Virus record (IMG/VR): IMGVR_UViG_2565956720_000017
DNA length: 18,278 bases
From: a virus
Lineage: Duplodnaviria; Heunggongvirae; Uroviricota; Caudoviricetes
Strand: one strand, 5' to 3'
Below are positions 2,115-18,278 of the stretch, piece by piece (the stretch's first letter is position 1; every line of letters begins with the position of its first letter). Under the pieces are notes generated by a model, which saw only the letters and a list, made by a program, of their open reading frames with translations, was not told the DNA's origin and ran no database searches. A program made the translations under genes and the position numbers.

Positions 2115-2883
2115 TTATGTTATCCCGCCCAATCATGAAGGCGGTTATATTTATGTGGCGCTTTCTGACATTGGATTAGTTAAGGTTGGAAAAACCAGAA
2201 ATGTTTCAGCCAGAATGAAACAGCTATCCACTGGTAGCGGCATCGAAATCACTAAAGTTGAGGTGTTGGGGCCATTTGTTAATTACGGACAAGTTGAGTT
2301 AGCTATTCATGCAAAACTTTCATCAGAACGCCGCTCTGGTGAATGGTTTTCTGCCGATTTGGATACGGTTAAAGCAATTGCCATCGACGCATCAAGAATT
2401 GGCACTCCAGGTACGAAGTTAGTTAATAAAGATGTTAACCATCCAATAATTGTTTACTTGTGGCTTGACGCACATGAGAAACACACCGAGTACGAGAAAA
2501 AACTATGTGAAATACTGTCTGATAGAGCAATTAACTTTCTTAATAATTATGGTGCGCCTTGCGTCCCATATGTTGCTTTATGCATTCATACAATGGGGCA
2601 GGTCATTCTTCAACAAGGCCAAAAGGCCTACTCTGTGTATCCACGAGGATTTGAAGCGTCCTCATTGCATCAATTAAGGGAGGATTGGGGGAATTTTGCA
2701 GATAAAGATATTTTCGAAAACTCTGAATTTGACGAGTTTCTTATAGATATAAGCGATAAAGATAAATTTAAGTCCGCGGCTGAGAAATGGAGGTCTGAGG
2801 CAATAAATAATCTTTTCGCAGAACTTACAGATGATTACCAGCGCTGGTTAGCCCGCCACATGGAGGTGAGCAGCCATGCGTAA
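2107..2883 (+). CDS. T5orf172 (GIY-YIG-like) domain protein
   Basis: 258 aa. The start overlaps the previous stop (ATGCGTAA) and GGGGGTGA lies upstream. The N-terminus GYIYVALSDIGLVKVGKTRNVSARMKQL...ELAIHAKL...RRSGEWFSADL is the T5orf172/MUG113-type signature. The C-terminal half is AT-rich with no recognisable motif. Confidence 0.65.
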   Translation: MRNYVIPPNHEGGYIYVALSDIGLVKVGKTRNVSARMKQLSTGSGIEITKVEVLGPFVNYGQVELAIHAKLSSERRSGEWFSADLDTVKAIAIDASRIGTPGTKLVNKDVNHPIIVYLWLDAHEKHTEYEKKLCEILSDRAINFLNNYGAPCVPYVALCIHTMGQVILQQGQKAYSVYPRGFEASSLHQLREDWGNFADKDIFENSEFDEFLIDISDKDKFKSAAEKWRSEAINNLFAELTDDYQRWLARHMEVSSHA

Positions 2884-3434
2884 ACCTGTCTTTTATGCCG
2901 GGCGCACTGAAATCTCTGTCATTAAATTCGATGACATTCAGGTGCGCATAGTGAGTATCAACGGCGAACCGTGGTTTGTTGGCGCTGATGTGTGTGCTGC
3001 GCTGGAAATCAGCAATGTTACTGATGCCGTTTCAGTTCTGGATAACGACGAGGTAATGACCCTAGCTTTAACCGAGGGGCATTCCGGTAAGCGTGGTGGT
3101 GCCAGAAGCTGGAATGTTGTCTCTGAATCAGGTTTCTACAAACTGATCGCCCGCAGCCGTAAAGCTTCCACACCAGGCACATTTGCGCACCGTTTCAGTA
3201 ACTGGGTATTCCGCGAGGTTATCCCTTCAATCCGCAAAACGGGGGGGTTATGGTGTTCCGTTTGCCATGCTGAATGATTTCAGTAAACGCCAGGCTGCCT
3301 ATCAACAGGAAGCCAGCAAACGCGGTTACAGGTTACAGCAATGCAAAGAGGCAAAAGATGCACTGGAACGAGAAGAGCGGGCGCTATGGCGTAAATATCA
3401 GCCTGATTTTCTGGAGGGTGAAAACAATGTGTAA
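2876..3434 (+). pseudogene. BRO-N domain antirepressor-like protein, interrupted by a +1 frameshift at a G7 tract
   Basis: The frame starting at 2876 (GGAGGTGA SD) encodes a BRO-N domain (FDDIQVRIVSINGEPWFVGADVCAALEI) and stops at 3277 shortly after GGGGGGG at 3241-3247. The adjacent frame then continues from the same tract to a stop at 3434 (GGYGVPFAMLNDFSKRQAAYQQ...). One fewer G would give a single protein of about 186 aa. This is either an assembly error or a real inactivating or slippage-prone tract. Confidence 0.6.
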
Positions 3435-4650: not shown

Positions 4651-4953
4651 ATGAAGAAGATTAAATTTACTGGCTTAAATGCCAGCGGACAGACTCACCC
4701 GAAAATCAGGATCGGGGATATTTTCCGGGATAAATATGGCGACAGTGTGGTTATTAATTCCGTGTATGAACGGCACATTACATACCGCCGCGCAGGGTAC
4801 GACTATGACTGTGTGATGCCCGTTCATCAGTTCCGGCGTGATTTTTCACTGGTATGTGCAGCACCACGCAGTAAGCCCACCAGTAAAGAGAAAGCACGGG
4901 CAAATATTCAGGTAATAAAGAACATGATTAACGCATTCAGGGGCAAGAAATGA
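4651..4953 (+). CDS. hypothetical protein
   Basis: 100 aa, tightly packed between the preceding ORF and the primase gene; its stop overlaps the primase start (ATGA). Confidence 0.55.
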   Translation: MKKIKFTGLNASGQTHPKIRIGDIFRDKYGDSVVINSVYERHITYRRAGYDYDCVMPVHQFRRDFSLVCAAPRSKPTSKEKARANIQVIKNMINAFRGKK

Positions 4954-7076
4954 AACGCGCACCGAATTTAAAGCACCAGCCGAAAGACAAAATGACGGAG
5001 GTGATTATCTTTGCGGGTAGTGATGCCTGGGCACATGCGAAAGAGTGGAGCGAATGGGCCGGAAAGCATATTGCGGCAGATGATACACATCCAGTTATTC
5101 TTGGACCGGAACAACTGGCGAGTCTGGCAGACACGCAAATCATCGACAAAGGGCGCTATTACGTGCGCGTTTATCGTGCTGGTGAAATATCAGAGCAGCA
5201 CCTTACACAGATAGCGACACTGCTTGCAGTGGCGGGTGTGAAGGAGGCGCGTTGCTACCGCAGCTTTGTTGACCAGCAGCCGGAGGACTGGACACCGCGC
5301 ATGGCTGGACTGAAGGATGATGCGGAACGCGGTAACAGTCTGGTGTTCAACCTTCCGGCAAAGACAAATTTCACCGGAAATTATGATGACGAATTAAAGC
5401 CTCGTGTTGAAAGTCGCGTCGATGGTGTTTTCTGGGTAACGCCCAAAGTGGACAAGCAGTCAGGCGAAATTATCCGGCCTGAGACGTGGTTATGTTCTCC
5501 GCTTGAACTACTGGGAACAGGAACAATCGGCAAAGAGCATTACCGCGTGATGCGCTGGAAAAAACCAGCAAACCATGAGGTCATTACAATGGCGGTCCCG
5601 TGCGGAGGCATTGGTGACCGTGACGGCTGGCGGTTGCTGAAAGACCACGGTCTTAACGTGACGACCAACGGCAAATACAGAGCCATCCTGGCTGACTGGA
5701 TGCAGTTAAGCGGAAGTCATGAGGAATGGCAGCTAAGCACTACAACGGGCTGGCATTTTGGTGCGTACATCATGCCGGATGGTTCGGTCATTGGTGAATC
5801 AGAGAAACCCATCCTGTTTACCGGAAAAACTGCCGCAGTTAATGGCTATTCCGTGGCGGGAACAGCGGAGGGCTGGCGCGATACCGTGGCGCGGCTGGCT
5901 GGTGGTAATCCGTCCATGATGCTGGGTGTGGCGGTATCGCTATCCGCACCATTAATCGGGCTGGTGGGTGCTGACGGCTTCGGGGTTCATCTTTTTGAGC
6001 AATCATCAGCAGGTAAAACCACCACACAGAACATTGCATCAAGTTTATGGGGAGAGCCGGACGCGCAACGGCTGACCTGGTACGGAACGGCGTTAGGTAT
6101 CGCCAACGAGGCCGAAGCACATAATGACGGGCTGTTACCCCTGGATGAAATAGGCCAGGCCGGAAACGCGCGGGAGGTGTCCACGTCAGCCTATACGCTG
6201 TTTAACGGTTCCGGGAAATTACAGGGGGCGAAGGACGGCGGCAACAGGGAGATAAAACACTGGCGCACGGTGGCAATCAGCACCGGAGAAATGGACGTTG
6301 AAACATTCCTCAAAACGGAAGGGATAAAAATTAAAGCGGGGCAGCTTGTCCGTCTGCTTAACGTGCCGATGGAAAAGGCATCGCAGTTTCACGAATACAG
6401 CACCGGAAAGGCGCACGCAGACGCGTTAAAAGATGCCTGGACAGAAAATCACGGGGCGGCAGGTCGTGAGTGGGTTAAATGGCTGGCAGGTCACCAGCAG
6501 GAGGCAAAGGACGCGGTAAGGGCATGTCGCGAGCGGTGGCGCAACCTGATACCGGAGAGCTACGGCGAGCAGGTTCACCGTGTGGGGGAAAGATTCGCCG
6601 TACTGGAGGCCGCGCTTGTGCTTTCCGGTCATGTTACAGGCTGGGATGTTCAGGCGTGCCGTGATGCAGTTCAGCATAACTTTAATGCCTGGGTGAAGGA
6701 ATTCGGCACGGGCAACAGGGAATTTAAACAGATGGTTGAACAGGCTGAGGCGTTTTTGTCGTCGTTCGGGTTCAGTCGATACCTTCCCTATCCAAACAGC
6801 GACGAGCGTGATTTACCGATTAAAGACCTTGCCGGATACAGAAAGGGGAGTATCAGAAACGAAGATGACGAGTTCCGTTTTTACACGTTCCCGCATGTGT
6901 TTGAGGGTGAGATAGCACAGGGATTTAATCCGTCTCACTTTGCCCGCGCGTTGAGTGCTGCCGGAATGCTGGAAGCGGGAGGCGACCGCCGTTACAAGAA
7001 AAAGGCGCTCGGCAGGATTGGCGGGAAGCAGCATATTTTTTACGTGCTGATGTTCCAGCCTGAAGCAGAAGATTAA
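4950..7076 (+). CDS. replication initiation protein, primase/helicase-like with P-loop NTPase (DUF927-like)
   Basis: 708 aa. A Walker A-like P-loop FEQSSAGKTTTQNIA sits in the central region. The gene follows alpA and small ORFs and is immediately followed by an iteron array, the layout of replication proteins in P4/CP4/PICI-type elements. The family name is from memory, not from a search. Confidence 0.7.
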   Translation: MKRAPNLKHQPKDKMTEVIIFAGSDAWAHAKEWSEWAGKHIAADDTHPVILGPEQLASLADTQIIDKGRYYVRVYRAGEISEQHLTQIATLLAVAGVKEARCYRSFVDQQPEDWTPRMAGLKDDAERGNSLVFNLPAKTNFTGNYDDELKPRVESRVDGVFWVTPKVDKQSGEIIRPETWLCSPLELLGTGTIGKEHYRVMRWKKPANHEVITMAVPCGGIGDRDGWRLLKDHGLNVTTNGKYRAILADWMQLSGSHEEWQLSTTTGWHFGAYIMPDGSVIGESEKPILFTGKTAAVNGYSVAGTAEGWRDTVARLAGGNPSMMLGVAVSLSAPLIGLVGADGFGVHLFEQSSAGKTTTQNIASSLWGEPDAQRLTWYGTALGIANEAEAHNDGLLPLDEIGQAGNAREVSTSAYTLFNGSGKLQGAKDGGNREIKHWRTVAISTGEMDVETFLKTEGIKIKAGQLVRLLNVPMEKASQFHEYSTGKAHADALKDAWTENHGAAGREWVKWLAGHQQEAKDAVRACRERWRNLIPESYGEQVHRVGERFAVLEAALVLSGHVTGWDVQACRDAVQHNFNAWVKEFGTGNREFKQMVEQAEAFLSSFGFSRYLPYPNSDERDLPIKDLAGYRKGSIRNEDDEFRFYTFPHVFEGEIAQGFNPSHFARALSAAGMLEAGGDRRYKKKALGRIGGKQHIFYVLMFQPEAED

Positions 7077-7100
7077 CTTCCCTGTGTGAGGTAAAAAGTT

Positions 7101-7224
7101 GCGGGTTATGCGGGTTATCCTGTGCATAAGTTAATTAACTGCATGATTAAAAAGGAAATCAATAACCCGCACGTAACCCGCAAAACGGCAGTTATAACCC
7201 GCAAATGTGCGATTGTAACCCGCA
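7101..7224. repeat. iteron array (putative origin of replication)
   Basis: Two tandem GCGGGTTAT copies (7101-7109, 7110-7118), then an AT-rich spacer, then four TAACCCGCA copies in the opposite orientation starting at 7163, 7174, 7195 and 7216 (spacings 11, 21 and 21 bp). It lies directly downstream of the primase stop. Confidence 0.7.
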
Positions 7225-7286
7225 AAATTTCACTGTAAGAGTGTAAACAAGCGTAACTATCACGTTAAAACCGGAGAACAAACAGC

Positions 7287-7709
7287 ATGACGGCGCAAAT
7301 ATCAGCTTACGGGCGGCTGGTGGCTGACCCGCAGTTAAAGACCACCAGCAAGGGCACACAAATGGCGATGGCGAGTATGGCGGTCCCCCTTCCATGCAAT
7401 CAGGCAGATGACGGAACGGCGACGATGTGGTTATCCGTCCTGGCGTTTGGCAGACAGGCCGACGCACTGGCAAAACACCACAAAGGCGAACTGGTGAGCG
7501 TGGCGGGTAACATGCAGGTAAGCCAGTGGACAGGCCAGAACGGCGAAACGCGGCAGGGCTGGCAGGTTATCGCAGACAGCGTAATCAGTGCGAGAACGGC
7601 GCGACCGGGCGGCAAAAAAGGCCAGCAAGGGCAGGCTACTGACGCACTGAACAGGGCAAAACAACAGGCGGGTAACGACGATCCGTACGGGGACGGGATA
7701 CCGTTTTAA
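7287..7709 (+). CDS. ssb: single-stranded DNA-binding protein (SSB-like)
   Basis: 140 aa with an OB-fold-like N-terminal region, a Gly/Gln-rich linker and the acidic C-terminal tail ...DDPYGDGIPF, which resembles the SSB DDDIPF tip. GGAGAA lies upstream. Confidence 0.7.
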   Translation: MTAQISAYGRLVADPQLKTTSKGTQMAMASMAVPLPCNQADDGTATMWLSVLAFGRQADALAKHHKGELVSVAGNMQVSQWTGQNGETRQGWQVIADSVISARTARPGGKKGQQGQATDALNRAKQQAGNDDPYGDGIPF

Positions 7710-7745
7710 TTCACAACAGCGAACAGAGTAATTACAGGGGAAGGC

Positions 7746-8243
7746 ATGACAAAGCTGACCATAAACAGAAAACCGAAGGGCATTTACGGCACGCCGCAGA
7801 AAACAGCACAGGCGGCGCAGCAGCAGAATAAAACCACATCGGCGCATAAAGTGATGCCAGATAACCAGAACACACAGCAGAAGCTCACAGGAGCAACACC
7901 GCGGCGGCGTATGACCAAACAGCAGCGTAAAAACCGCAGACGCGTTAACCGTCTTATTGAGCTATGGCCTGAATTATTCAGCCCGGAATCACCTAAGCCG
8001 CTTAAGGTGGGGATATTTGACGACCTGATACAGGATATTGCCGCGAGAGGTATTTCACTCGGACAGGGAACACTACGCGCAACGCTGGCGCGTTATGTGC
8101 AGACTCCGCGCTATTACCGCGCCCTGGTAGCTGGTGGCGCGCGTTACGACCTGAAAGGCCAGCCGTGCGGCGAGGTAACACCACTACAACAGACGCACGC
8201 AGGAAAACTACTGGAGGAGATGAATGGAAATAGTAAGAAATGA
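7746..8243 (+). CDS. ProQ/FinO-domain RNA-binding protein
   Basis: 165 aa. [30 protein letters not shown]...[11 protein letters not shown] parallels the E. coli ProQ N-terminal domain (PLKIGIFQDL...VDLDGNPCGEL) as I recall it. The N-terminus is basic and Gln-rich. Confidence 0.8.
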
Positions 8244-8640
8244 TCACGCACATGGTCGCCGTGCAGGTGATCACATTGTGGATGAAATGGCGGAAAAACA
8301 AAGAGTTGACATTATTGTCAGTGTCACAGTCGAGAGCGCGAAGCGCCAAAATAAGCGTATAAATGATCGTTCAGATGTACATGGTGTGATCACTCGTTTA
8401 CGCCAGACTTTTGTAACTCGTGAAGAGATGATTGAAGCTATTGACCAGCATACAGCATGTATCAGCGTCAGGGATATACCGGAGGTCATTGCTAACTACT
8501 TCATGATCACCAGACGCCTTTACCGGAGAAAAGACAAGAGCACGGTTAACCGTCTCCTGATGTCTGATATTCGCGAATACCTGCAAGAAAGGGGCTATGT
8601 GAATCCACCAGAACAGCGCTACGGAAGAGTCGGAGGCTAA
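8224..8640 (+). CDS. hypothetical protein
   Basis: 138 aa. The start overlaps the end of the ProQ/FinO gene and has GGAGGAG upstream. It is AT-richer than its neighbours and has no motif I recognise. Confidence 0.5.
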
Positions 8641-8725
8641 CTAAAACCCTGTACCGAAGAGCGGCGGCGCGATGGGGGTGAAGTAATGCAGTTGGGAAAC
8701 TGATAAGGAACGGTATTACATATCA

Positions 8726-8875
8726 ATGCGACGACTGGAATGTTCCAGGAAGGCACAGAGGCCACCGAAGCAACCGGATAATTTAGAAGACCTGAAACGG
8801 TCGCTTAAACGCACTGAAAAAGAAATGGGGATAGATGGGATCGGGAAATCAGTATGGCGTAACTACCAGAAGTAA
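8726..8875 (+). CDS. possible small ORF (about 49 aa)
   Basis: Hand-translated ATG-to-TAA frame (MRRLECSRKAQRPPKQPDNLEDLKRSLKRTEKEMGIDGIGKSVWRNYQK) ending 7 nt before a strong terminator. It has no good SD and is below the track's size cutoff. Confidence 0.2.
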   Translation: MRRLECSRKAQRPPKQPDNLEDLKRSLKRTEKEMGIDGIGKSVWRNYQK

Positions 8876-8881
8876 GCACAG

Positions 8882-8906
8882 AGCCGGAGCAATCCGGCTT
8901 TTTTTG
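8882..8906 (+). terminator. Rho-independent terminator ending the replication operon
   Basis: Stem AGCCGGA (8882-8888), loop GCAA, stem TCCGGCT (8893-8899), followed by a run of seven T (8900-8906). Confidence 0.7.
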
Positions 8907-9007
8907 GGGCTGAAATCAATCAATCTGTTTTTGTGATAGAAATATGTTTATCTACCACTTTTTCAGATCAATAATGTGCATAGTTTAGTCAGTAAGAGGA
9001 AATTGCT

Positions 9008-9214
9008 GTGAATTGTATTAACGACCTGAACACAGGCGATGTCAGAGGTGGTTCCGTTCATCTGGATGCACAGACCGTGATGCGCATTAAGCAGTACAGA
9101 ATCGACCATGTGAACAATCACCCTGATCAGCCATTACCAGGCGTGGCGCAGATTGTCAGACATGCCGTAAACGCCTGGCTTAATCAGAATGGTTTTGCAT
9201 CGGGGGGTGAGTAA
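9008..9214 (+). CDS. hypothetical small protein (GTG start)
   Basis: 68 aa with AAGAGGAAA 7 nt upstream of the GTG. It is the first gene after the terminator and directly upstream of the giant-protein operon. Confidence 0.45.
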   Translation: MNCINDLNTGDVRGGSVHLDAQTVMRIKQYRIDHVNNHPDQPLPGVAQIVRHAVNAWLNQNGFASGGE

Positions 9215-9310
9215 TGAATCGCTGGTACAGCATCAAAGCAGAGGGACGCCAATGTTATCTAACTCAGGTTTTATGAATTCTGACTCCCGATTCAAAATAG
9301 GAGGTTACTA

Positions 9311-11842
9311 ATGCCAGTCGTACCAACAGTATCCGGACGTCAGGTTGAGAGCCGTGGAGTTCAGTCAGCAGGCTTGCAGACGTTTTCTCAGCCAGGTATT
9401 AGTGATGCTTTTGTTCGTGCAGGAGCAGAGGCAATTGATGTTCTGGGTCAGGCAAAACAGCGTGCCAATATTGCCTTGGTTCAGGAGGCATCCCTTAAAC
9501 TCAGTCAGACAGGCAGTGATCTGCTGAATAATCCTGAAACAGGATTGCTTAACCTGAAAGGGAAAAATGCTATTGGAAAAGGCCATGAGTATACGCAGCA
9601 GTTTGATGCTCAGGTCGAACAACTGGCTATGTCGCTGCCGGATGAACAGGCCCGTAATGCTTTCATGCAGCAGGCACAGCAGCAGCGCATTCAGTTCACT
9701 ACGCAGGCCGGGCGGTACGAGATCGGGCAAATAAATGCCTACGAAGAAGGCCAGTTTCAGGCTACGCTGCTGAACAATGGTAAAAATGCCGCAGCATTGT
9801 ATGGCGACAACGCCGCATACGTATTGGCTAATAAGCAAACTTTCCAGCAAATTGAGGAGTACGGCATTGCGCATGGCTGGAGCGACGAGCAGATTCGGGC
9901 CAGGAAAATCGAGTTTAAAGAAGCAACAGCAAAAGCAACTGCTCAAAATGCTATTGGAGCAAACTATCTTCAGGTAAGACAGCAAAACGGCGAGTTAAGC
10001 GATACTGCTGCTGGAGCTCGCCGTGCTGTAGCAGATAGTGGATCTTCCGATCGTACCCGCGGTATACGCAACAATAACCCCGGCAATCTTGAATACAGCA
10101 AAACTAATCCGTGGGTTGGGCAGACTGGTGATGATGGTCGCTTTGCTAAATTCGAAACACCTGAACACGGTATTCGTGCATTAGGGCGGAACCTGATGTC
10201 GTATCAGCGGCAGGGTATTGATACCGTCAGCGAGATAATTAATCGCTGGGCACCGCCTACTGATAAAAATGACACTATGTCGTATATCAAAGCAGTGTGC
10301 GAACAACTTGGCGTTTCTGCTGATGATCCTATAGATGCATCTAATCCGGATACCCTGAAGGCGCTTTGTGCAGCCATTATCCATCATGAAAACGGTAGCC
10401 AGCCATACAGTGATCAGCAGTTAACTGCAGGTGTTAGTGCTGCGCTGGGGCTTTCTCAGCTACCGACAAAAAATAAACGTTATACCGGTGTAGCCTGGTT
10501 CGATGCTTTAAGTGAATCGGATCAGGCCAGCGTGTTGCGACAGACTGATGCACTAGCCAGACAACAGCAGGCTGAATATAAAACGATGCTCGACAGCCGG
10601 GTTCGCGATGCGACAGCTGCGTATATGCGTGGCGTTGAATTTCCTAACCCACCAGGTGAGGCTGATTTTATTGCAGCTTATGGCGTCAGAGAAGGAAACC
10701 TGCGATATACCGAGTTCAGAAATACGCAGATCGCCGGACAGTATATAGGCTCTTTCCGCAACATGCCGACAAGCAGCATTACCGCATATGTTGAGCAATT
10801 GCGCCCGGATACTGGTGAAACAGGGGAGGGGTATGCGTCTCGTGCGGAGTTATTCGACCGGGTATCGGCGGCAGCCACGAAGGTAATAACCCAGAGGCAG
10901 AATAATCCGTTTAGTGCAGCGGTGGAAATCGGAGCCTATAAGCCGATCACCAGCAACAACCCTGACGACATCACTGCCGAGGTGGCTAACCGTTTCTCGT
11001 CGCAGGAAAGCTTACGTTCGTTGGGAATTAATGCCCCAATCCTCAACAGTGAAGAGGCGGCTGCGCTGGCACAGCAGGTGCGCGGCACTCAGAACGTTGA
11101 CCAGACAATTAAACTGTTGCAGAGCATGGGGGAGAAGCTGCCTGCGCCAGCAATACGGCAGGTGGCATCTGTAATTGCTCCGAACAGTGCAGCAACAGCC
11201 TATTCTGCGCTGCTGCTGGGCACGCCGGATAATCAGTACGATAACACCAGGCCGTCGATCCCATATAGTCAGTTCATCGGGTATAAGCCGACGATGAACA
11301 AGTACGACGTTGCAAAGGTTATTCTTTCCGGCGACCAACTACTGAATCCGACGAAGGCCATGAAGAATGCGGGCATAACTCCGGTACAGTTGCCGAGCGA
11401 AGATAAGATGAAAGACGCTTTCGACGAACAGGTAGGTAATGCATTTGCCCGTAACCCGCAGTTACGCCAGATCAGTTATAGCCTTTTCAAAGCCGCTTAC
11501 GCAGGAATAGCTTATCAGTCTGGTGATGCATCTACGGTAAGAACCAGTATGCCTGATACAGACATTGTAGCTGATGCCGTGAAGTATGCTACTGGCGGTA
11601 TATACAATGGTTTTAATGGCGGCGACGTTGTAATGCCTTTCGGCATGGATAAATCTACTTTCAAAGATCGCTATACCACATCTGCGAAACAAGCACTGAA
11701 AGATGCCGGACTTAACGTAAATGCAGTGTCAAATTTCACGCCAGTTAATATCGGCAATAACCGGTATCGGCTGGTAAATGGTAGCGGACGCTGGGCAACA
11801 GATCCCAGAACCAATAAAGCTATTGTCGTGAGGGTTGAATAA
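9311..11842 (+). CDS. large protein of unknown function (843 aa), first gene of the cargo operon
   Basis: Long uninterrupted frame with a strong SD (AGGAGGT 7 nt upstream). It is Gln/Ala-rich and contains the conserved-looking block RGIRNNNPGNLEYSKTNPWVGQTGDDGRFAKFETPEHGIRALGRNLMSYQ. Its stop overlaps the next start (TAATG). Confidence 0.8.
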   Translation: MPVVPTVSGRQVESRGVQSAGLQTFSQPGISDAFVRAGAEAIDVLGQAKQRANIALVQEASLKLSQTGSDLLNNPETGLLNLKGKNAIGKGHEYTQQFDAQVEQLAMSLPDEQARNAFMQQAQQQRIQFTTQAGRYEIGQINAYEEGQFQATLLNNGKNAAALYGDNAAYVLANKQTFQQIEEYGIAHGWSDEQIRARKIEFKEATAKATAQNAIGANYLQVRQQNGELSDTAAGARRAVADSGSSDRTRGIRNNNPGNLEYSKTNPWVGQTGDDGRFAKFETPEHGIRALGRNLMSYQRQGIDTVSEIINRWAPPTDKNDTMSYIKAVCEQLGVSADDPIDASNPDTLKALCAAIIHHENGSQPYSDQQLTAGVSAALGLSQLPTKNKRYTGVAWFDALSESDQASVLRQTDALARQQQAEYKTMLDSRVRDATAAYMRGVEFPNPPGEADFIAAYGVREGNLRYTEFRNTQIAGQYIGSFRNMPTSSITAYVEQLRPDTGETGEGYASRAELFDRVSAAATKVITQRQNNPFSAAVEIGAYKPITSNNPDDITAEVANRFSSQESLRSLGINAPILNSEEAAALAQQVRGTQNVDQTIKLLQSMGEKLPAPAIRQVASVIAPNSAATAYSALLLGTPDNQYDNTRPSIPYSQFIGYKPTMNKYDVAKVILSGDQLLNPTKAMKNAGITPVQLPSEDKMKDAFDEQVGNAFARNPQLRQISYSLFKAAYAGIAYQSGDASTVRTSMPDTDIVADAVKYATGGIYNGFNGGDVVMPFGMDKSTFKDRYTTSAKQALKDAGLNVNAVSNFTPVNIGNNRYRLVNGSGRWATDPRTNKAIVVRVE

Positions 11843-13902
11843 TGTCTGATGTTTTTTCTTTGGCTCCAGAAGGTCAGGCATGGATTGACGACAAAACAGT
11901 TGCCAACCCAGCAAGGCCAGAAGACTACGATCCGACTCCATTCCAGGGTTCAGGTACTGCACTTTTGAGCGGCGTGGCGGAGGGGGCTCTCGGTCTCGCG
12001 CAGTCTGCCGTCGGATTCAGCAAGCGCCTGATTAGCGATCCGGCATTTACCGCAGACGTGGCACCGACTGTTAATATTTTTCGGGAGATGTTCCCTGATG
12101 CTGACAAAACACTGAATGATACATACGACACGATCGGAAAACAGTTACAGGATGCCCGCAGCTATGTGAAGCCTGATGCAGGCAGTCAGGGAATGGCGGC
12201 TGAGGTATTAAATGAGCTTGGTAAATTTGTTCCTGCAATCGGAACAACTATGTTTGGCGGTCCCCTCATCGGCGCTGCTACAGCTTTCAGTTCTACGTAT
12301 GAGCAGTCCTATCAGGATTTTAAAGGGAAGGGAGTAGACGAGGCTACGGCGCGTAACCTGGCAACGCAGCAAAGCCTTTTCAATGCTGTGGGTATGGCCT
12401 TACCCGCTGCCGTCGGCACCACACTGGCAACGCGCATTGCCTCAGGTGTGGCAATCAACACCGGATTCGGTGGACTGAACCGTTACTCTGTCGGCGCAAC
12501 ACTGGAGGAAAAAGGCTACACGGAGATGGCAAAACAGTACCGGGTATTTGACGGTCAGGCGATGTTAGTCGATGCCGTTTTAGGCGGGGTCTTTGGTGGC
12601 GTTCATCACCTGACTACCCATAATAACCATGATGGTACAGAGTCGAACATTTCTGCAGAAGAAATAAAATCAACTTTTGGTGAACATTATCAGCAATCTC
12701 CTGATGGTAACATTGAGTCAATGGTTCGTGATTTATCTGATTCAGGAGTAATAGAACTTATTAATGAACCAGCAATAAAAAATAGTGATGGAGAAATACT
12801 TCTGAATAAAGGTCATGTGACAGTAGCTTCTGGAAAAGAACCAATAATAAGAATAAATATTAATGGATTAAAAGATCATGAAGAACTGTTAGAAACCCTT
12901 CATCACGAGGCGCTTCATCTTGAGCAGCGCCATTACCCTGACTGGAAGGCCAGAAAGCTAGCTAATGCTGTACTTAAATCTGCAAACAAGCATTCTGACT
13001 ATCCTGAATTTGCATATGGGATGTCACAATATTATGAATATAAGAAAAGGGGTGAGTACCCTGAAACATATCCTGAGTGGTTGTACGCTGAAGAAGTTGC
13101 CGCACATGCAGTAAATCCATCTCTAAAGACAAGCGTTTCATCATGGGAAAAAATTATTTCAGGTTTTAAAGCCTATATATTCAGATACAGTGGTATTCAG
13201 GTTGGAACCGTTACACCTGAGCAGTTACGGTTACTCGTAAGTATGCGTCTTCGCAATATGAAACTGGAAGCCGCAGTCGAAAAAGTTTTTGGTATCCGGG
13301 CAAGGGAAAGAATAAAACCAAGCGATATTGATGCAGCCCACATTTTGAATGAGGGGCTTCATTACGATATTGAATCGTCACCAGTGCTTCACACCAGCAA
13401 TGAGAGCATCAACAGCCATGTTGACGCCATGGATGAAGCATACAGGCAACTTAATGATGGTCAGCCTGTAAATGTTGGGGGGATGGCGCGAGGGCTTGAT
13501 GGTCCATTGCGATCAGATATATCTGATACTTACCAAGAGCAATACCATGAAATACAAAAGGTTTTTGAAGAAAATGGTGTCAGATATGAAACATCATCAG
13601 AGCCAATTAGTGAATCGCCTGTCCCTCGTGCTGAAAGTGCTTTCTCATCGGCTGGTGAACACAGAGGGGACGTCAGCGTTGATCCAGATACAGGGCAGGT
13701 TCTCTCATCCAACAGCTATGACCTTATGGCTGCCAGAGACATGGCTGTTGCCAATCCTGAGCTGACTATAGCTCACCCGGAAACCGGAAACCCGACAAAA
13801 CTTTCTGATCTCCTGGCTGAGTTGGATGAACAGATTAAGACAGTCCAGAACGAATCGAAGGTTTATTCTGTAGCGGCAGCGTGCTTCTTGAGGAACCCAT
13901 AA
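11842..13902 (+). CDS. large protein of unknown function (686 aa) with Gly/Ala-rich hydrophobic segments and an inserted HExxH module
   Basis: TAATG start overlap with the upstream gene and GAGGG upstream. The N-terminal half has several Gly/Ala-rich hydrophobic stretches (for example FVPAIGTTMFGGPLIGAATAF and AVGMALPAAVGTTLATRIASGVAINTGFGG). The central AT-rich segment encodes HHEALHLEQRHYPDW. The C-terminus is acidic. Confidence 0.8.
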   Translation: MSDVFSLAPEGQAWIDDKTVANPARPEDYDPTPFQGSGTALLSGVAEGALGLAQSAVGFSKRLISDPAFTADVAPTVNIFREMFPDADKTLNDTYDTIGKQLQDARSYVKPDAGSQGMAAEVLNELGKFVPAIGTTMFGGPLIGAATAFSSTYEQSYQDFKGKGVDEATARNLATQQSLFNAVGMALPAAVGTTLATRIASGVAINTGFGGLNRYSVGATLEEKGYTEMAKQYRVFDGQAMLVDAVLGGVFGGVHHLTTHNNHDGTESNISAEEIKSTFGEHYQQSPDGNIESMVRDLSDSGVIELINEPAIKNSDGEILLNKGHVTVASGKEPIIRININGLKDHEELLETLHHEALHLEQRHYPDWKARKLANAVLKSANKHSDYPEFAYGMSQYYEYKKRGEYPETYPEWLYAEEVAAHAVNPSLKTSVSSWEKIISGFKAYIFRYSGIQVGTVTPEQLRLLVSMRLRNMKLEAAVEKVFGIRARERIKPSDIDAAHILNEGLHYDIESSPVLHTSNESINSHVDAMDEAYRQLNDGQPVNVGGMARGLDGPLRSDISDTYQEQYHEIQKVFEENGVRYETSSEPISESPVPRAESAFSSAGEHRGDVSVDPDTGQVLSSNSYDLMAARDMAVANPELTIAHPETGNPTKLSDLLAELDEQIKTVQNESKVYSVAAACFLRNP

Positions 13903-16658
13903 TGAAACAGGCATGTGTTGAAGCTATTGCGCAGACACTTGGTCGCCAGCCAAAGGCTGATGAGCTGAAAAATATTGAAGATCGTATCAAAGAAGCTGTG
14001 CAGCATGTGCACAGAAAGAATGCAAAAGAAGGAAAAAGTGGTATTCCTGATGCTCAAACATACATGGATGCAGCAGAACTGGTACGCCAGCGTGTGGTTC
14101 ATGATGTGTACAAGAAAAGACAGCGTGTTGCCCACAATGCGATCGCCATCAGTAAAATTATTGACACTCTCGATGCTAACATCCCGCCTGATCAGCAGAC
14201 ACCTGTTAATTTGCAGCAGTTTATTTTTGCTGGCCGACGATCGAGAGACAAAGCTGATATCTCCGTTACTTCTGCTGAAGAGCTTGCAATTGGGGCATAT
14301 CAGGACTGGTCCCGTCAGCTCAGTGCTGAACTTCTAAAAGCAGGTGATGACGTCCGCAAATTCTTCGAGCAGAGCAGGGCGCTTGGAGAGCAGCGGTTTC
14401 GGAGTGTATTCGACAGGCAGGCGGCAAAGTCTGCACAACTCCAGATCCTTAAAGAGATTTACGGCGAAGATACCGGGAATCCACTGGCGAAGAAAATTGC
14501 ACAGATTTGGAAGGATGTAACAAGCCGTGTTCGCCATGAGATGAACGACAACGGCTTTGACATAGGCCAGCGAGACGACTGGAATATGCCATATGTGGAT
14601 GATGCTGACCTTATTCGCAATGCCGGGCGCGAAGAATGGCTGGCATCGTTACCAGTGACAGAACAAGCTACAGCACGTCTTTCAGGTCGCCAGCCACCGA
14701 TTGAGTTTGCCCGCCAGGCATGGGTTGATGACGTTTACAACACGCAGGATCGCAGCAATTACGTTAATCCTGATGGCAGCATTATGAATGACGTTGAGTA
14801 CCGTCAGGCACTGGAAGCGATCTTTGAAACGAAGGCCACTGATGGGGCAAACAAAATTGAGCCTGGTACATTTATGGGAGCCGGAGGAATAAAGAGCCGT
14901 GGTTCTCAGCACAGGGTGATGGCGTTCAAGGATGCGCAGTCACACTTCGCCTATATGGAGCGATACACTCAGCAGCCGCTGGTGGGGGTGATGATGTCGC
15001 ACCTGCAATCATCATCCAGGGATTTGGGCGTCGTTAAAGCCTTTGGTCCGGACGCCGAAAGAAACTTTTCCCTGGTACTGGATCGCATCTATAAGCGCGC
15101 AGTAACAGGCGGGAAACGCAAAAAAGAAATGGAGGATGAGGCCAAATTAGTAGCCCGTATGTTCAACTCAATGGCTGGCCTAAATGGTGTCGCTTCATCG
15201 AGTGTGTTCTCTTCAGCTGTTGGTGGTCTGCGTAACCTGATGACCAGCGCCATGCTTGGCACCAGCGTACTGACAGCAACCAGCGACCAGGCAATTATGC
15301 GGGCAAATGCGCAGGCGCTGGGCTTTACCCGTGGTGGAATGCGGCTTTCCGTTAACACTATCAAAAACCTGTTTAGTGGAGATGCCAAAAAGGCGAATGC
15401 TGAACTCGGTCTGCTGGTGGATTCACATGCTGCTGTGGTTTCGAAAATGGGCGGGTTTGACTTGTCTCGCGGCATAACTGGCTGGTTCGCAGAGAAGACA
15501 CTGAAGTGGTCCGGGCTGATCGCTATGGACCGCGCAAACAAAGCGTCGTTTGGTCTCCTGATGTACAAAAACATTGGCGAGCTGACCAGAAAATTTAAGA
15601 CGCTGGACGATATGAAAGGAACCGATAAAACCATTCTGGCTAACAAGGGATGGAGCAATGAGGACTGGGCCATCATGGCAGCGGCAGAACTCAGGCCGAT
15701 GACTACAGCCGGGCATATGGGGATGACGCCAGACGCGATTTACGCTGTGCCCGATAACGTAATCGCCGACATTATGGCAGACCGTATTGCCCGGATTCGT
15801 GCCGGGAGTGAAAAGGCACTGGCAGCCCTTGGTGATCTCCCTCCAGAACGCCAGAAACGGATGAAAGAAGCATTCGACGCTGAGGCTGAGCAGACCATCA
15901 TGCGCATGATTCGTAATGCACGCGCTGAAGCAGCCCAGAAATTGCTGGGAATTACGCACGGTGAGATGACCAATGCTGTGACCACCGCTACGGGTATTGA
16001 TACATATGCCCGTGATGATGCTGGCGAGTTAATGAAGAGCTTCATGCTCTTCAAAACAACCCCATTTGCTGGATTTCGGCAACTTGTTAACAGAACACGG
16101 GATTTGGACACCGTTCCGGCCATTAAATTTCTGGCCTCATATATCGGGGGAACAACTCTTGCTGGTATGTTTGCGATCCAGATGAACAGTTTGTTAAATG
16201 GTAATGACCCGCTGGATATGACAAAACCAACCACATGGGTTCAGGCTCTACTGAAAGGTGGTTCGTTCGGTATCTACGGTGATTTTATTTTCCAGGACCA
16301 TACGCAATATGGCTCCAGCATCGGTGCCACTATGGGTGGCCCTGTGTTGAGCTTTGCAGAGCAGTTAACAAAATTACTGATTACTAACCCACAGAAGGCT
16401 ATACAGGGTGAAGAAACATCATTCGGTGCCGATGCACTGAAAACAGCCCGCATGATCACCCCATTCGCAAACCTGTGGTATGCGAAAGCGATAACCAATC
16501 ACCTGATATTGCAACAACTTCAGGAGATGGCAAACCCTGGTTACAATGATCGAGTAAGGGACCGCGCGCAACGGGAGTTCGACATAACGAGTTGGTGGGA
16601 ACCGGGTGCTATTGCGCCACGTAGAGCACCGGATTTTGGAAAGGCGGTGGGGAACTGA
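13902..16658 (+). CDS. large protein of unknown function (about 918 aa)
   Basis: Start placed at the ATG at 13902, which overlaps the upstream stop (TAATG) and has GAGGAA upstream. The track's start at 13881 lies inside the previous gene and lacks an SD. Gly/Ser/Ala-rich hydrophobic patches occur in the C-terminal third. Confidence 0.75.
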   Translation: MKQACVEAIAQTLGRQPKADELKNIEDRIKEAVQHVHRKNAKEGKSGIPDAQTYMDAAELVRQRVVHDVYKKRQRVAHNAIAISKIIDTLDANIPPDQQTPVNLQQFIFAGRRSRDKADISVTSAEELAIGAYQDWSRQLSAELLKAGDDVRKFFEQSRALGEQRFRSVFDRQAAKSAQLQILKEIYGEDTGNPLAKKIAQIWKDVTSRVRHEMNDNGFDIGQRDDWNMPYVDDADLIRNAGREEWLASLPVTEQATARLSGRQPPIEFARQAWVDDVYNTQDRSNYVNPDGSIMNDVEYRQALEAIFETKATDGANKIEPGTFMGAGGIKSRGSQHRVMAFKDAQSHFAYMERYTQQPLVGVMMSHLQSSSRDLGVVKAFGPDAERNFSLVLDRIYKRAVTGGKRKKEMEDEAKLVARMFNSMAGLNGVASSSVFSSAVGGLRNLMTSAMLGTSVLTATSDQAIMRANAQALGFTRGGMRLSVNTIKNLFSGDAKKANAELGLLVDSHAAVVSKMGGFDLSRGITGWFAEKTLKWSGLIAMDRANKASFGLLMYKNIGELTRKFKTLDDMKGTDKTILANKGWSNEDWAIMAAAELRPMTTAGHMGMTPDAIYAVPDNVIADIMADRIARIRAGSEKALAALGDLPPERQKRMKEAFDAEAEQTIMRMIRNARAEAAQKLLGITHGEMTNAVTTATGIDTYARDDAGELMKSFMLFKTTPFAGFRQLVNRTRDLDTVPAIKFLASYIGGTTLAGMFAIQMNSLLNGNDPLDMTKPTTWVQALLKGGSFGIYGDFIFQDHTQYGSSIGATMGGPVLSFAEQLTKLLITNPQKAIQGEETSFGADALKTARMITPFANLWYAKAITNHLILQQLQEMANPGYNDRVRDRAQREFDITSWWEPGAIAPRRAPDFGKAVGN

Positions 16659-16972
16659 TGACGAGAGATAAAATTGAATATATTGCTTCTCTTAAATATG
16701 AAGCTGAGAAATGGAGAAGGATTGGCGGGTGGGGAACATTAATATCACTCTCTGCTTTACTTATAGACTCCTGGTTCAGACATATTGATGCAGCATCATT
16801 ACTTTTTGAATCAGCAGTACTTGGTGGATTCATTTGCTGTTGGGGTGGTAATTATGATCGGGCGTCCAAACATAAGAGAGAACTTGACGCGATATGTTTT
16901 GCTTTATTCGGTAAGGATTACGAAAGTTCTGACCTTGATATAATTGAATTCAACAAAACGGAACTATCGTGA
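16658..16972 (+). CDS. small membrane protein (two predicted hydrophobic helices)
   Basis: 104 aa with a start overlapping the upstream stop (TGATG). Two hydrophobic segments (GTLISLSALLIDSWF and LLFESAVLGGFICCWGG) are visible. It is AT-richer than the operon and followed directly by a strong terminator. Confidence 0.6.
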   Translation: MTRDKIEYIASLKYEAEKWRRIGGWGTLISLSALLIDSWFRHIDAASLLFESAVLGGFICCWGGNYDRASKHKRELDAICFALFGKDYESSDLDIIEFNKTELS

Positions 16973-16980
16973 CATGTCAC

Positions 16981-17006
16981 AAGGCCGCTTTCGCGGCCTT
17001 GTTTTT
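16981..17006 (+). terminator. Rho-independent terminator ending the cargo operon
   Basis: 8-bp GC-rich stem AAGGCCGC / GCGGCCTT with TTTC loop (16981-17000), followed by GTTTTT (17001-17006). Confidence 0.8.
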
Positions 17007-17676
17007 AACGAATGCCACCGCCGCCCGGGCGGGAAACCGCAGATAAAAAAGCCCGCTGCGCGGTTTTATTAATACTTATACCATGGGGATTGATCCTTCA
17101 ATGGACAATCCTTCCATCGTGTGGCCAGCCATTCATATTCTTTGTCTTTTCTTCAGTACCGGCTTTGCATCTTCTACACCCTGAAAGATGTCGTTTTATG
17201 GTGTATCTGATGATTTATTCCCTAACAATAGATATTCGAAAAATTAATCAGTTAAAACAATTATTTGGATAATTTCAGGTAAAACTATCTTAATCTTCTG
17301 GTGGATCTCAATGCGCAGTGACGGTATCGGGATTAACGGCGTGGATATGCGCGATATATGCCGCTACACCCCTCAACAGTAATAGATATGCGCTTTTTAC
17401 GCTCTCCTTTCACTGTTGAGAACGGCAACAATGTGCCACAGGAACGCGCTGTAATCGATTCTGACGCACTTAATTGCGTTGGGTAATGGTTTGCCAGCCT
17501 GTGGGGGTAACTCTGTTTTATGAGGCTTTGGCTATAGTGCAAAAATGCACTTTGTCTTGCCTCTCAATTTGATGAGACTGGAACGACAACAGGACAGACC
17601 ACCAGCAACAGTTACCGTATTCAGCCGTTCTGTAGCACCAGTGGAACTATCCACCCCAGCTTTCAGCAATGTGTTT

Positions 17677-17829
17677 GCGGGTTATTTTGGGGCGTTTGCG
17701 GGTTATTTGGGATGTTTTGCGGGTTATGCGATGCTTGAATAATGAACAGTGCATTTTTCAACATATTGATACTAAAGAACAAAAAATAGTTAGCACGCTA
17801 AGATAACCCGGTAACCCGCATAACCCGCA
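17677..17829. repeat. second iteron cluster (cis replication region-like), mirror image of the first
   Basis: Three GCGGGTTAT copies at 17677, 17698 and 17719 (exact 21-bp phasing), then an AT-rich spacer, then ATAACCCGG / TAACCCGCA / TAACCCGCA at 17803-17829 in the opposite orientation. A (TA)n run follows at about 17839-17850. Confidence 0.7.
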
Positions 17830-18278
17830 CTGTTTTGTATATATATATACGAAAAATTGCATTCAGGAGGGGGGATCGAAATCCCTACAACCCATTGCTT
17901 ATGGGACCGCCGCCTCGTCAAATTTTTACACCCGCGAAATAAAAAATACTTCACGCTGGTGGGCATGATGCTGATATGAGAGGCTTCCATAACGCCACCA
18001 TTCGAAACTATGCAAATCTGCATAGAAAAGGGGATGCCTGATACAATACCCTCGCCCGATAAAATCACACCGATAAACTCATCTGCCACGAGTAGAAAGA
18101 GCGAACGAACCCGATACGCAGTAATGCTGGTCGGGTCCAGCTTTTTAAGGCGGCTGTAGATATCAGGCCATCCGTGATCATCCACCAGCGTAATTGCTGA
18201 ACGCTTTAAAAAAACGTGTACATAAGGGTGTACATAATCAAAAACCGCATTAGAAAGAAACCAGATACAATGCGGCAT

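Follow-up and report, generated by a model that had tools for sequence, protein, structure and literature searches.

What two separated clusters of one short repeat do for a single mobile element is the question raised by a stretch of 18,278 nucleotides filed as the Caudoviricetes record IMGVR_UViG_2565956720_000017 (the window in the following). Cluster A directly follows the gene for a 708-aa DUF927 primase-helicase (Pri-Rep), and cluster B is located 10.5 kb downstream. E. coli strain 22-245 carries an identical sequence as a chromosomal island between yicC and dinD, and the backbone of this island is that of a phage-inducible chromosomal island (PICI). Comparison with related islands makes it probable that A and B are binding arrays for Pri-Rep and constitute the two halves of a bipartite PICI origin, here split by 10.5 kb. 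Origins of this kind are already known; for the split arrangement, in which the two halves are kept matched, the literature searched contains no description.

The repeat, TAACCCGCA, is present in 12 exact copies in the window (0.14 expected), a number reached in 0 of 200 dinucleotide-preserving shuffles, which rules out chance or low complexity as the source of the repeats. Eleven of the 12 copies fall into cluster A (7100-7224) or cluster B (17676-17829). Both clusters occupy non-coding DNA: A begins 24 bp past the stop codon of the primase gene, and B is found between the last gene of the block termed cargo below and the right end of the island. Phased copies are located on the plus strand in A (at 7163, 7174, 7195 and 7216, with a pitch of 11, 21 and 21 bp) and on the minus strand in B (at 17676, 17697 and 17718, with a pitch of 21 and 21 bp); copies 11 or 21 bp apart lie on the same face of the helix. 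The layout of B is the reverse complement of that of A (inverted repeats I1 and I2), and in each cluster opposed iteron sets surround an AT-rich region, as in PICI origins. The first-pass annotation of the window had located both clusters to within one base, and the 21/11-bp phasing and opposite internal arrangements that it described are borne out by the copy positions and the inverted layout. The replicase gene and the parts of the two units are as follows.

4950..7076, plus strand: Pri-Rep gene, 708 aa, DUF927 (Pfam, E = 1.7e-46); putative iteron-binding initiator, helicase and primase
about nt 6717-7073, plus strand: allele-specific C-terminal domain of Pri-Rep, residues ~590-708, delimited by identity comparison across alleles
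7100..7117, minus strand: two tandem iterons of unit A with 9-bp pitch (copies at 7100 and 7109), kept in all relatives with this allele
7118..7162, no strand: AT-rich spacer of unit A, 45 bp, 29% GC; putative melting region, which fits the PICI origin layout (PMC6092414; PMC9371898)
7163..7224, plus strand: four phased iterons of unit A; the breakpoint between split and contiguous forms is immediately after 7224
11452..11460, plus strand: stray single iteron inside the gp15-like gene, at the same offset (+4354/4355 from A) in the window-like IMG/VR loci L073, L079 and L081
17676..17726, minus strand: three phased iterons of unit B, from the copy scan
17727..17802, no strand: AT-rich spacer of unit B, 76 bp, 32% GC, conserved within the allele
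17803..17829, plus strand: three tandem iterons of unit B, a degenerate TAACCCGGT at 17803 and exact copies at 17812 and 17821
17830..17857, plus strand: conserved tail of unit B, CTGTTTTGTATATATATATACGAAAAAT, 23% GC, found in contiguous as well as distal B units, whatever the iteron allele

The stray copy at 11452 is probably incidental. For the CTGTTTTGTATATATATATACGAAAAAT tail of B a role in unwinding is possible, or one as a promoter that lacks a -35 box; scans for consensus promoters and terminators showed nothing convincing at either cluster and did not call the tail as a promoter. A search against Rfam found no RNA family in the window.

Matches in Pfam and the PDB identify Pri-Rep as a self-loading helicase initiator of the Rep type known from PICIs and Staphylococcus aureus pathogenicity islands (SaPIs). 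Residues 215-603 match the 'Pathogenicity island protein' of PDB entry 8TCH (E = 2e-14), the Cch helicase 5DGK is matched too, and in NCBIfam the Cch1 helicase is matched weakly. In SaPIs, the iterons are bound by the C-terminal winged-helix domain of Rep; the origin is located right after rep and has at least two iterons, in opposite direction, on each side of an AT-rich centre, where two hexamers are thought to load (PMC9371898). PICIs of E. coli have the same origin layout, and a segment comprising pri-rep and ori replicates a plasmid, as shown for EcCICFT073 (Fillol-Salom 2018, PMC6092414). Among the alleles of Pri-Rep, the core (residues 150-590) is 90-98% identical in nearly all cases (79% in L007). 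Over the last ~118 residues, identity is 83-100% among TAACCCGCA alleles and falls to 28-47% in comparison with the other iteron groups. This C-terminal domain was the only one of nine island protein segments tested that tracked the iteron sequence; no tracking was seen for AlpA, the small open reading frame (ORF), DUF4222, the N-terminus and core of Pri-Rep, SSB and ProQ. We infer from this comparison that the C-terminal domain of Pri-Rep reads the 9-mer. The proposal that both clusters share one repeat thus holds: they are arrays of a single iteron, whose sequence varies together with the C-terminal domain of the neighboring primase-helicase.

The window resembles the PICI/SaPI origin (Ubeda et al.; Fillol-Salom 2018, PMC6092414; Qiao et al. 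2022, PMC9371898) in its homologous Rep, in an origin unit 3' of rep (A, 24 bp after the gene) and in an iteron specificity that tracks the C-terminal domain of Rep. It differs in that its family has two mirror units, which in the window are 10.5 kb apart, the second one beside cos and attR. While A is located immediately 3' of rep, B of the window is not, and B of the contiguous relatives is.

Such a contiguous relative is EcCIEDL933 of E. coli O157:H7 EDL933, the prototype of the capsid-forming PICIs (bioRxiv 10.1101/2022.09.08.507074). This island has the same backbone as the window (int, alpA, icd-like, DUF4222, DUF927 pri-rep, SSB, PerC) and the same 9-mer, and the C-terminal domain of its Pri-Rep is 87% identical. 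Here, however, A and B are contiguous: after the DUF927 gene a single array of ~316 bp (L002 14398-14713) shows the layout of A and then directly the layout of B. EcCIEDL933 furthermore carries capsid, portal, HNH and terminase genes, in contrast to the split origin and epsilon15-type genes of the window. A contiguous array of TAACCCGCA was also found in L005, and the E. coli islands L006-L008 have fused A and B units made of other iterons, TGGGACAAC and TGAGGCAAC. In a survey of 12 loci from other Enterobacterales genera (including Winslowiella, Cedecea, Pantoea, Rahnella, Citrobacter, Pectobacterium, Tenebrionibacter and Apirhabdus) the units were fused in ten; the two exceptions are E. albertii L009, which is split, and L012, where A and B are about 170 bp apart. 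A fused origin of ~320 bp directly after the primase gene is thus found in relatives from about 10 genera. The fused form is common, and because it is so widespread it is probably ancestral.

In contiguous islands the iterons of B co-vary with the C-terminal domain of the replicase across about 10 genera, and therefore B appears to be under Rep-linked constraint in this family. Unit B stops there 30-40 bp short of the gene that opens the hyp-SSB-PerC-packaging operon, and the SSB/ProQ module comes after unit B. In the window, SSB (7287-7709) and ProQ/FinO (7746-8243), identified with Pfam, are the first genes of the module between the origin halves:

7287..8243, plus strand: SSB and ProQ/FinO genes

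These comparisons argue that A and B together make up one origin, whose halves adjoin in most relatives, and are not a dedicated pair of ori and enhancer.

The split form was seen in a subset of the Escherichia islands. Split islands with TAACCCGCA iterons are the window, L003, L004, L023 and L026-L028. In these, A follows the primase gene, SSB comes next, and a matching B is located 7.7-10.6 kb downstream. All of them except the window are complete capsid-forming PICIs; they sit at yicC, gcd/hpt, rcnR/thiM and yifB and inside a prophage terL gene. The latter location applies to L023 (2172-19193) and L026 (7331-24414), split-origin capsid-forming PICIs that lie within terL of a resident prophage and leave two pseudogene halves; PMC10111431 describes this configuration under the name 'helper-embedded PICI'. 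The split also exists for a second iteron, GGGACAAG: in L009 of E. albertii and L024 of E. coli, A and B are separated only by SSB-ProQ-PerC (2.3 kb). The TAACCCGCA split islands share one A-side junction, right after the fourth iteron (7224/7225 in the window), and the junction of the GGGACAAG islands differs from it, which points to independent splits or else to selection in favor of a match. Loci L029-L031 did not provide a third split allele.

Whether A ever occurs without B was evaluated with a sample of IMG/VR contigs that was drawn from the A side and thus carries no bias toward the presence of B; a distal B was counted if it was part of the locus or located elsewhere on that contig. 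Seven contigs were contiguous and nine end too early; of the A-only contigs that could be judged, all 18 carried a distal B with matching iterons. Overall, a matching distal B is present in 27 of 27 decidable A-only loci, at distances of 2.3-10.6 kb; these loci are not all independent, and represent at least 10 distinct A-to-B distances, at least 6 integration sites and two specificities. Rough row counts gave about 104 genomes with a split-type A and 115 with a distal B. The first-pass annotation had proposed to search homologous islands for the paired arrangement, and the outcome is in its favor: every decidable island with only A after the primase gene has a matching distal B. In the literature searched on PICI origins we found no description of a split arrangement or a distal second unit; a literature search for the 9-mer returned unrelated papers only, and two papers on capsid-forming PICIs contained no origin detail.

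The origin of this family normally consists of two mirror units, A and then B, each with the layout of a complete PICI unit, and B ends in a conserved TATATATA tract. A rearrangement in the lineage of the window would have placed the module from SSB to the accessory genes between A and B, with A staying at the primase gene. After induction and excision, Pri-Rep hexamers would gather on the phased iterons of A and B and open the AT-rich spacers, and replication would start. Unit B would still be needed in cis: it could provide another site for helicase loading, or Rep could loop it to A, a situation that would resemble ori and crr of P4. A more far-reaching version holds that the distal B is an obligatory cis partner over 8-10 kb, acting by looping or as a second, oppositely oriented helicase-loading site, and that PICIs arrived independently, perhaps on two occasions, at an ori/crr arrangement like that of P4, with a fused bipartite origin as the starting point. 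We regard this version as possible, but less likely than not.

The distal B has a constant neighbor. In every distal B the tail is followed by ~120 bp that match the cos-containing region of the Stx phage phiP27. In the window this is:

17866..17947, plus strand: phiP27-type cos site directly downstream of B, 86% identical to the phiP27 region with the annotated cos-site

In the alignment, CGCCCGCCCC of phiP27 corresponds to CGCCGCCTC of the window at about 17907-17915. The same cos sequence is located between the HNH and P27-type terS genes in the prophage locus L030. Because locus L029 carries a phiP27-type cos at the island end and no B, unit B is best regarded as an insertion just upstream of the terminal cos site and as lying itself outside cos. 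That B is a part of cos was ruled out by the same locus and by the iterons of B, which follow the replicase allele while the adjacent cos is constant. Beside B of contiguous islands, the P27-type cos sequence was not detected. As a terminase gene is missing from the window island, its packaging would have to be done by a P27-like helper phage or a co-resident capsid-forming PICI.

A second cos-like sequence (…CCGACCGCCTCCTCAAATTTTTGTGCACGG…) was observed between HNH and terS in capsid-forming PICIs, at the following positions:

L002 20380-20670: cos-like CCGACCGCCTCCTCAAATTTTTGTGCACGG site
L003 22285-22575: cos-like CCGACCGCCTCCTCAAATTTTTGTGCACGG site
L004 22982-23272: cos-like CCGACCGCCTCCTCAAATTTTTGTGCACGG site
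L027 20797-21087: cos-like CCGACCGCCTCCTCAAATTTTTGTGCACGG site
L023 15650-15940: cos-like CCGACCGCCTCCTCAAATTTTTGTGCACGG site

Together with the cos beside B, split-type capsid-forming PICIs would therefore have two cos-like sites. Two cos sites are reportedly present in EcCICFT073 as well. In island KSC9 (L003), a 121-nt direct repeat (94% identity; 25209-25329 and 25643-25763) flanks the distal B and cos, and a similar sequence is found near the end of L031; the KSC9 repeat may be a trace of the insertion of this B and cos segment.

Distal B units with TAACCCGCA iterons were also found as orphans, in L006 (24538-24692), L022 (18046-18202), L021 (18055-18210), L054 and L057. In L006 the orphan occurs beside a DUF927 allele with its own fused TGGGACAAC origin; in L022, L054 and L057 beside a P4-alpha-like primase with TGTTCACC iterons; and L021 is a decayed island without a primase. 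A mismatched distal B is thus seen only where a complete local origin exists or where there is no replicase. Most simply, the orphans would be recombinants with breakpoints in the shared region between SSB and the packaging genes, for which L022 and L027, sharing the yifB site, are an example. The orphans make it evident that B and its right flank move as a module and can persist unmatched.

Several points weigh against a bipartite origin that is split in the window. Binding of Pri-Rep, melting and the need for B are all deduced from sequence. Unit A alone corresponds in full to the published definition of a PICI origin. The iterons of orphan B units are nearly intact without a cognate Rep, which suggests that B can persist without serving the resident replicase, or that it may simply move along with the neighboring cos. 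Shared descent could in part explain why A-only and distal B co-occur, since one A-side junction is common to all TAACCCGCA split islands and many of the loci sampled are nearly clonal. Finally, the single-sequence AlphaFold model of the C-terminal domain has a predicted local distance difference test (pLDDT) score of 44.7, too poor to check for a winged helix.

Some of these points lead to an explanation in which A alone is the working origin and B is a passenger, displaced once by a rearrangement and hitch-hiking with cos and the island end. The transfer of B and cos as one module into islands with an unrelated replicon or none (L006, L022, L021, L054 and L057), the single A-side junction of all TAACCCGCA split islands and the fit of A alone to the published origin layout all agree with it. 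No A-only island without a matching B was found, however (27 of 27 decidable), though the reciprocal recombinants, orphan B units, are common. Matched split pairs with another A-side junction exist in the second iteron specificity, and the co-variation of B with the replicase C-terminal domain in contiguous islands of about 10 genera speaks against a passenger as well; we consider this explanation quite unlikely. Unlikely, too, is that B is mainly a regulatory site under the control of Rep, be it a promoter or operator on the conserved TGTATATATATA tract or an array for titration or handcuffing in copy-number control, like incA of P1 and incC of F. Iteron plasmids do carry second, regulatory iteron clusters; in P1 (incC/incA) and F (incB/incC) the repeat to which the initiator binds occurs both at the origin and elsewhere, with genes in between, an arrangement that the window shares for its iteron, and the second clusters of these plasmids are dispensable negative regulators. 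In contiguous islands B ends 30-40 bp before the hyp-SSB-PerC-packaging operon, and its TATATATA tail is constant over all alleles while the iterons change, which would suit a regulatory site. In split islands, however, B is downstream of that operon and followed by cos and attR, with no gene, and still keeps matching iterons, and the consensus promoter scan finds no site at B. Unlike the plasmid clusters, B of the window has the full layout of an origin unit, with an AT-rich core between inverted iteron sets, and B is present in every decidable A-only island, whereas the second clusters of the plasmids are dispensable. A regulatory function is, moreover, compatible with a role in the origin.

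Two further explanations take the pairing of the clusters itself as their starting point. That the clusters are mutually inverted and bracket a block of genes could indicate terminal inverted repeats of a transposon-like unit carrying SSB through cargo, an alternative that the first-pass annotation had named. No feature supports it: there is no target-site duplication, the outer flanks being partly complementary (I2) and not direct repeats, and no transposase between the clusters; the left boundary of A is fixed beside the primase stop codon in contiguous islands also, and the iterons co-vary with the replicase C-terminal domain. Transposon ends are thus ruled out, and we give this explanation practically no credit. 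The same annotation had likened the clusters to ori and crr of P4, a comparison that we based on the GenBank annotation NC_001609 and a repeat scan. In P4, crr ("cis required region for replication") comes directly after the alpha gene and ori is 4.7 kb away, both being made of TGTTCACC repeats. P4 and the window thus agree in that one repeat, bound by the replicase in P4 and putatively so in the window, forms two clusters separated by kilobases of a small circular DNA, the first directly after the primase-helicase gene and the second near att or cos functions, and the island also contains Icd-like and AlpA genes. That it is a P4-family replicon with a true ori and crr is nevertheless very improbable. 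BLASTP detects no relationship between Pri-Rep and P4 alpha (E = 0.11, for which reason membership in the family was rejected; the L022 primase as positive control gave 49% identity, E = 6e-161), real alpha-like PICI primases exist and use TGTTCACC iterons (L022), and the window has no sid, psu or delta genes and no counterpart of the two 120-bp direct repeats that form crr in P4. Both elements of P4 are needed by experiment, whereas the need for both in the window is suggested by comparison, and relatives of the window have the two parts fused. Of the analogy, the two-array layout therefore stands; kinship of the replicases does not, and neither does a dedicated pair of ori and enhancer, as the parts are fused in most relatives. 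The island is best described as P4-like in layout and not as a P4-family replicon. A P4-alpha-like primase with a fused origin of the P4 type-1 repeat TGTTCACC was observed in the PICIs and capsid-forming PICIs L022 (7657-9700), L031 (9543-11589), L054 and L057.

Between the origin halves the window contains, apart from SSB, ProQ/FinO and PerC, a block of large genes, which had been described as a cargo operon:

9311..16972, plus strand: 'cargo', homologues of epsilon15 gp15 (lytic transglycosylase), gp16 and gp17 and a small ORF, identified with PHROG and tblastn

The gene block is real, and its identity is that of virion-protein genes of the epsilon15 type. The proteins of 843, 686 and 925 aa give full-length matches to PHROG 992, 1145 and 684 (E down to 1e-296) and are 78-89% identical to gp15, gp16 and gp17 of the Salmonella podophage epsilon15; the DNA is collinear and 75-79% identical through the epsilon15 terminator, and a terminator-like match is located at 16963-17006. 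A defence system was rejected as the nature of the cargo: Pfam, PADLOC and NCBIfam gave nothing, and PHROG and phage tblastn identify virion proteins. The block occupies the position of the capsid/terminase module in capsid-forming PICIs, to which the window does not belong, since no capsid, portal, protease, HNH, TerS or TerL genes were found in it; the relatives L003, L004, L023 and L026-L028 do carry the capsid module. A satellite carrying genes for podovirus internal virion or ejection proteins appears undescribed in the literature searched. The suggestion that the cargo lies inside the replicon has little meaning, because the excised island is a circle of ~19.8 kb on which the clusters, 10.6 and 9.2 kb apart, are almost opposite.

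The ends of this island are defined by a 21-bp copy of the yicC 3' end that is repeated at both of them, with the attR core at ~18300-18320, just outside the window and ~470 bp from B, and a tyrosine integrase gene just left of the window. One further repeat was recorded at the right end:

18216..18239, plus strand: GTGTACATA-type repeats, also present beside attL (repeat families D5 and D8); likely integrase or excisionase arm sites

The genes of the island encode AlpA, Rha, GIY-YIG, BRO-N, Icd-like and DUF4222 proteins, the 708-aa DUF927 protein, SSB, ProQ/FinO and PerC, followed by the three large ORFs. RefSeq marks BRO-N (window 2876-3434; L001 10877-11435) and PerC (8650-8876; L001 16650-16876) as frameshifted, and regulation of the island may thus be partly decayed though the replication module is intact. 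The RefSeq protein WP_497755118.1 (17790-18278, minus strand; L001 25791-26477) overlaps the tandem iterons of B and cos and crosses attR into the chromosome; it is probably a spurious junction ORF. A ProQ/FinO-domain RNA chaperone is encoded at 7746-8243, and conserved structured non-coding sequence is present at 17850-17960, after the TATATATA tract; a small transcript could arise from 17850-17960.

For the PICI family, these results describe a mirror-unit origin whose units seem to have been parted by 2-10 kb in evolution while their specificity stayed matched to the replicase. PICI and SaPI origins are a model for self-loading initiator-helicases, in which the placement of the two hexamers is at issue. 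If the distal B is indeed an obligatory partner, the split islands would be natural constructs, showing that the halves of an origin for a self-loading helicase need not adjoin. They offer ready material for asking whether one unit is enough, whether the units loop to each other and where forks start. Tools for finding satellites and annotating origins should not assume that the whole origin is beside rep. The variable accessory slot of these satellites lies between the origin halves, and in the window this slot holds phage virion-protein genes.

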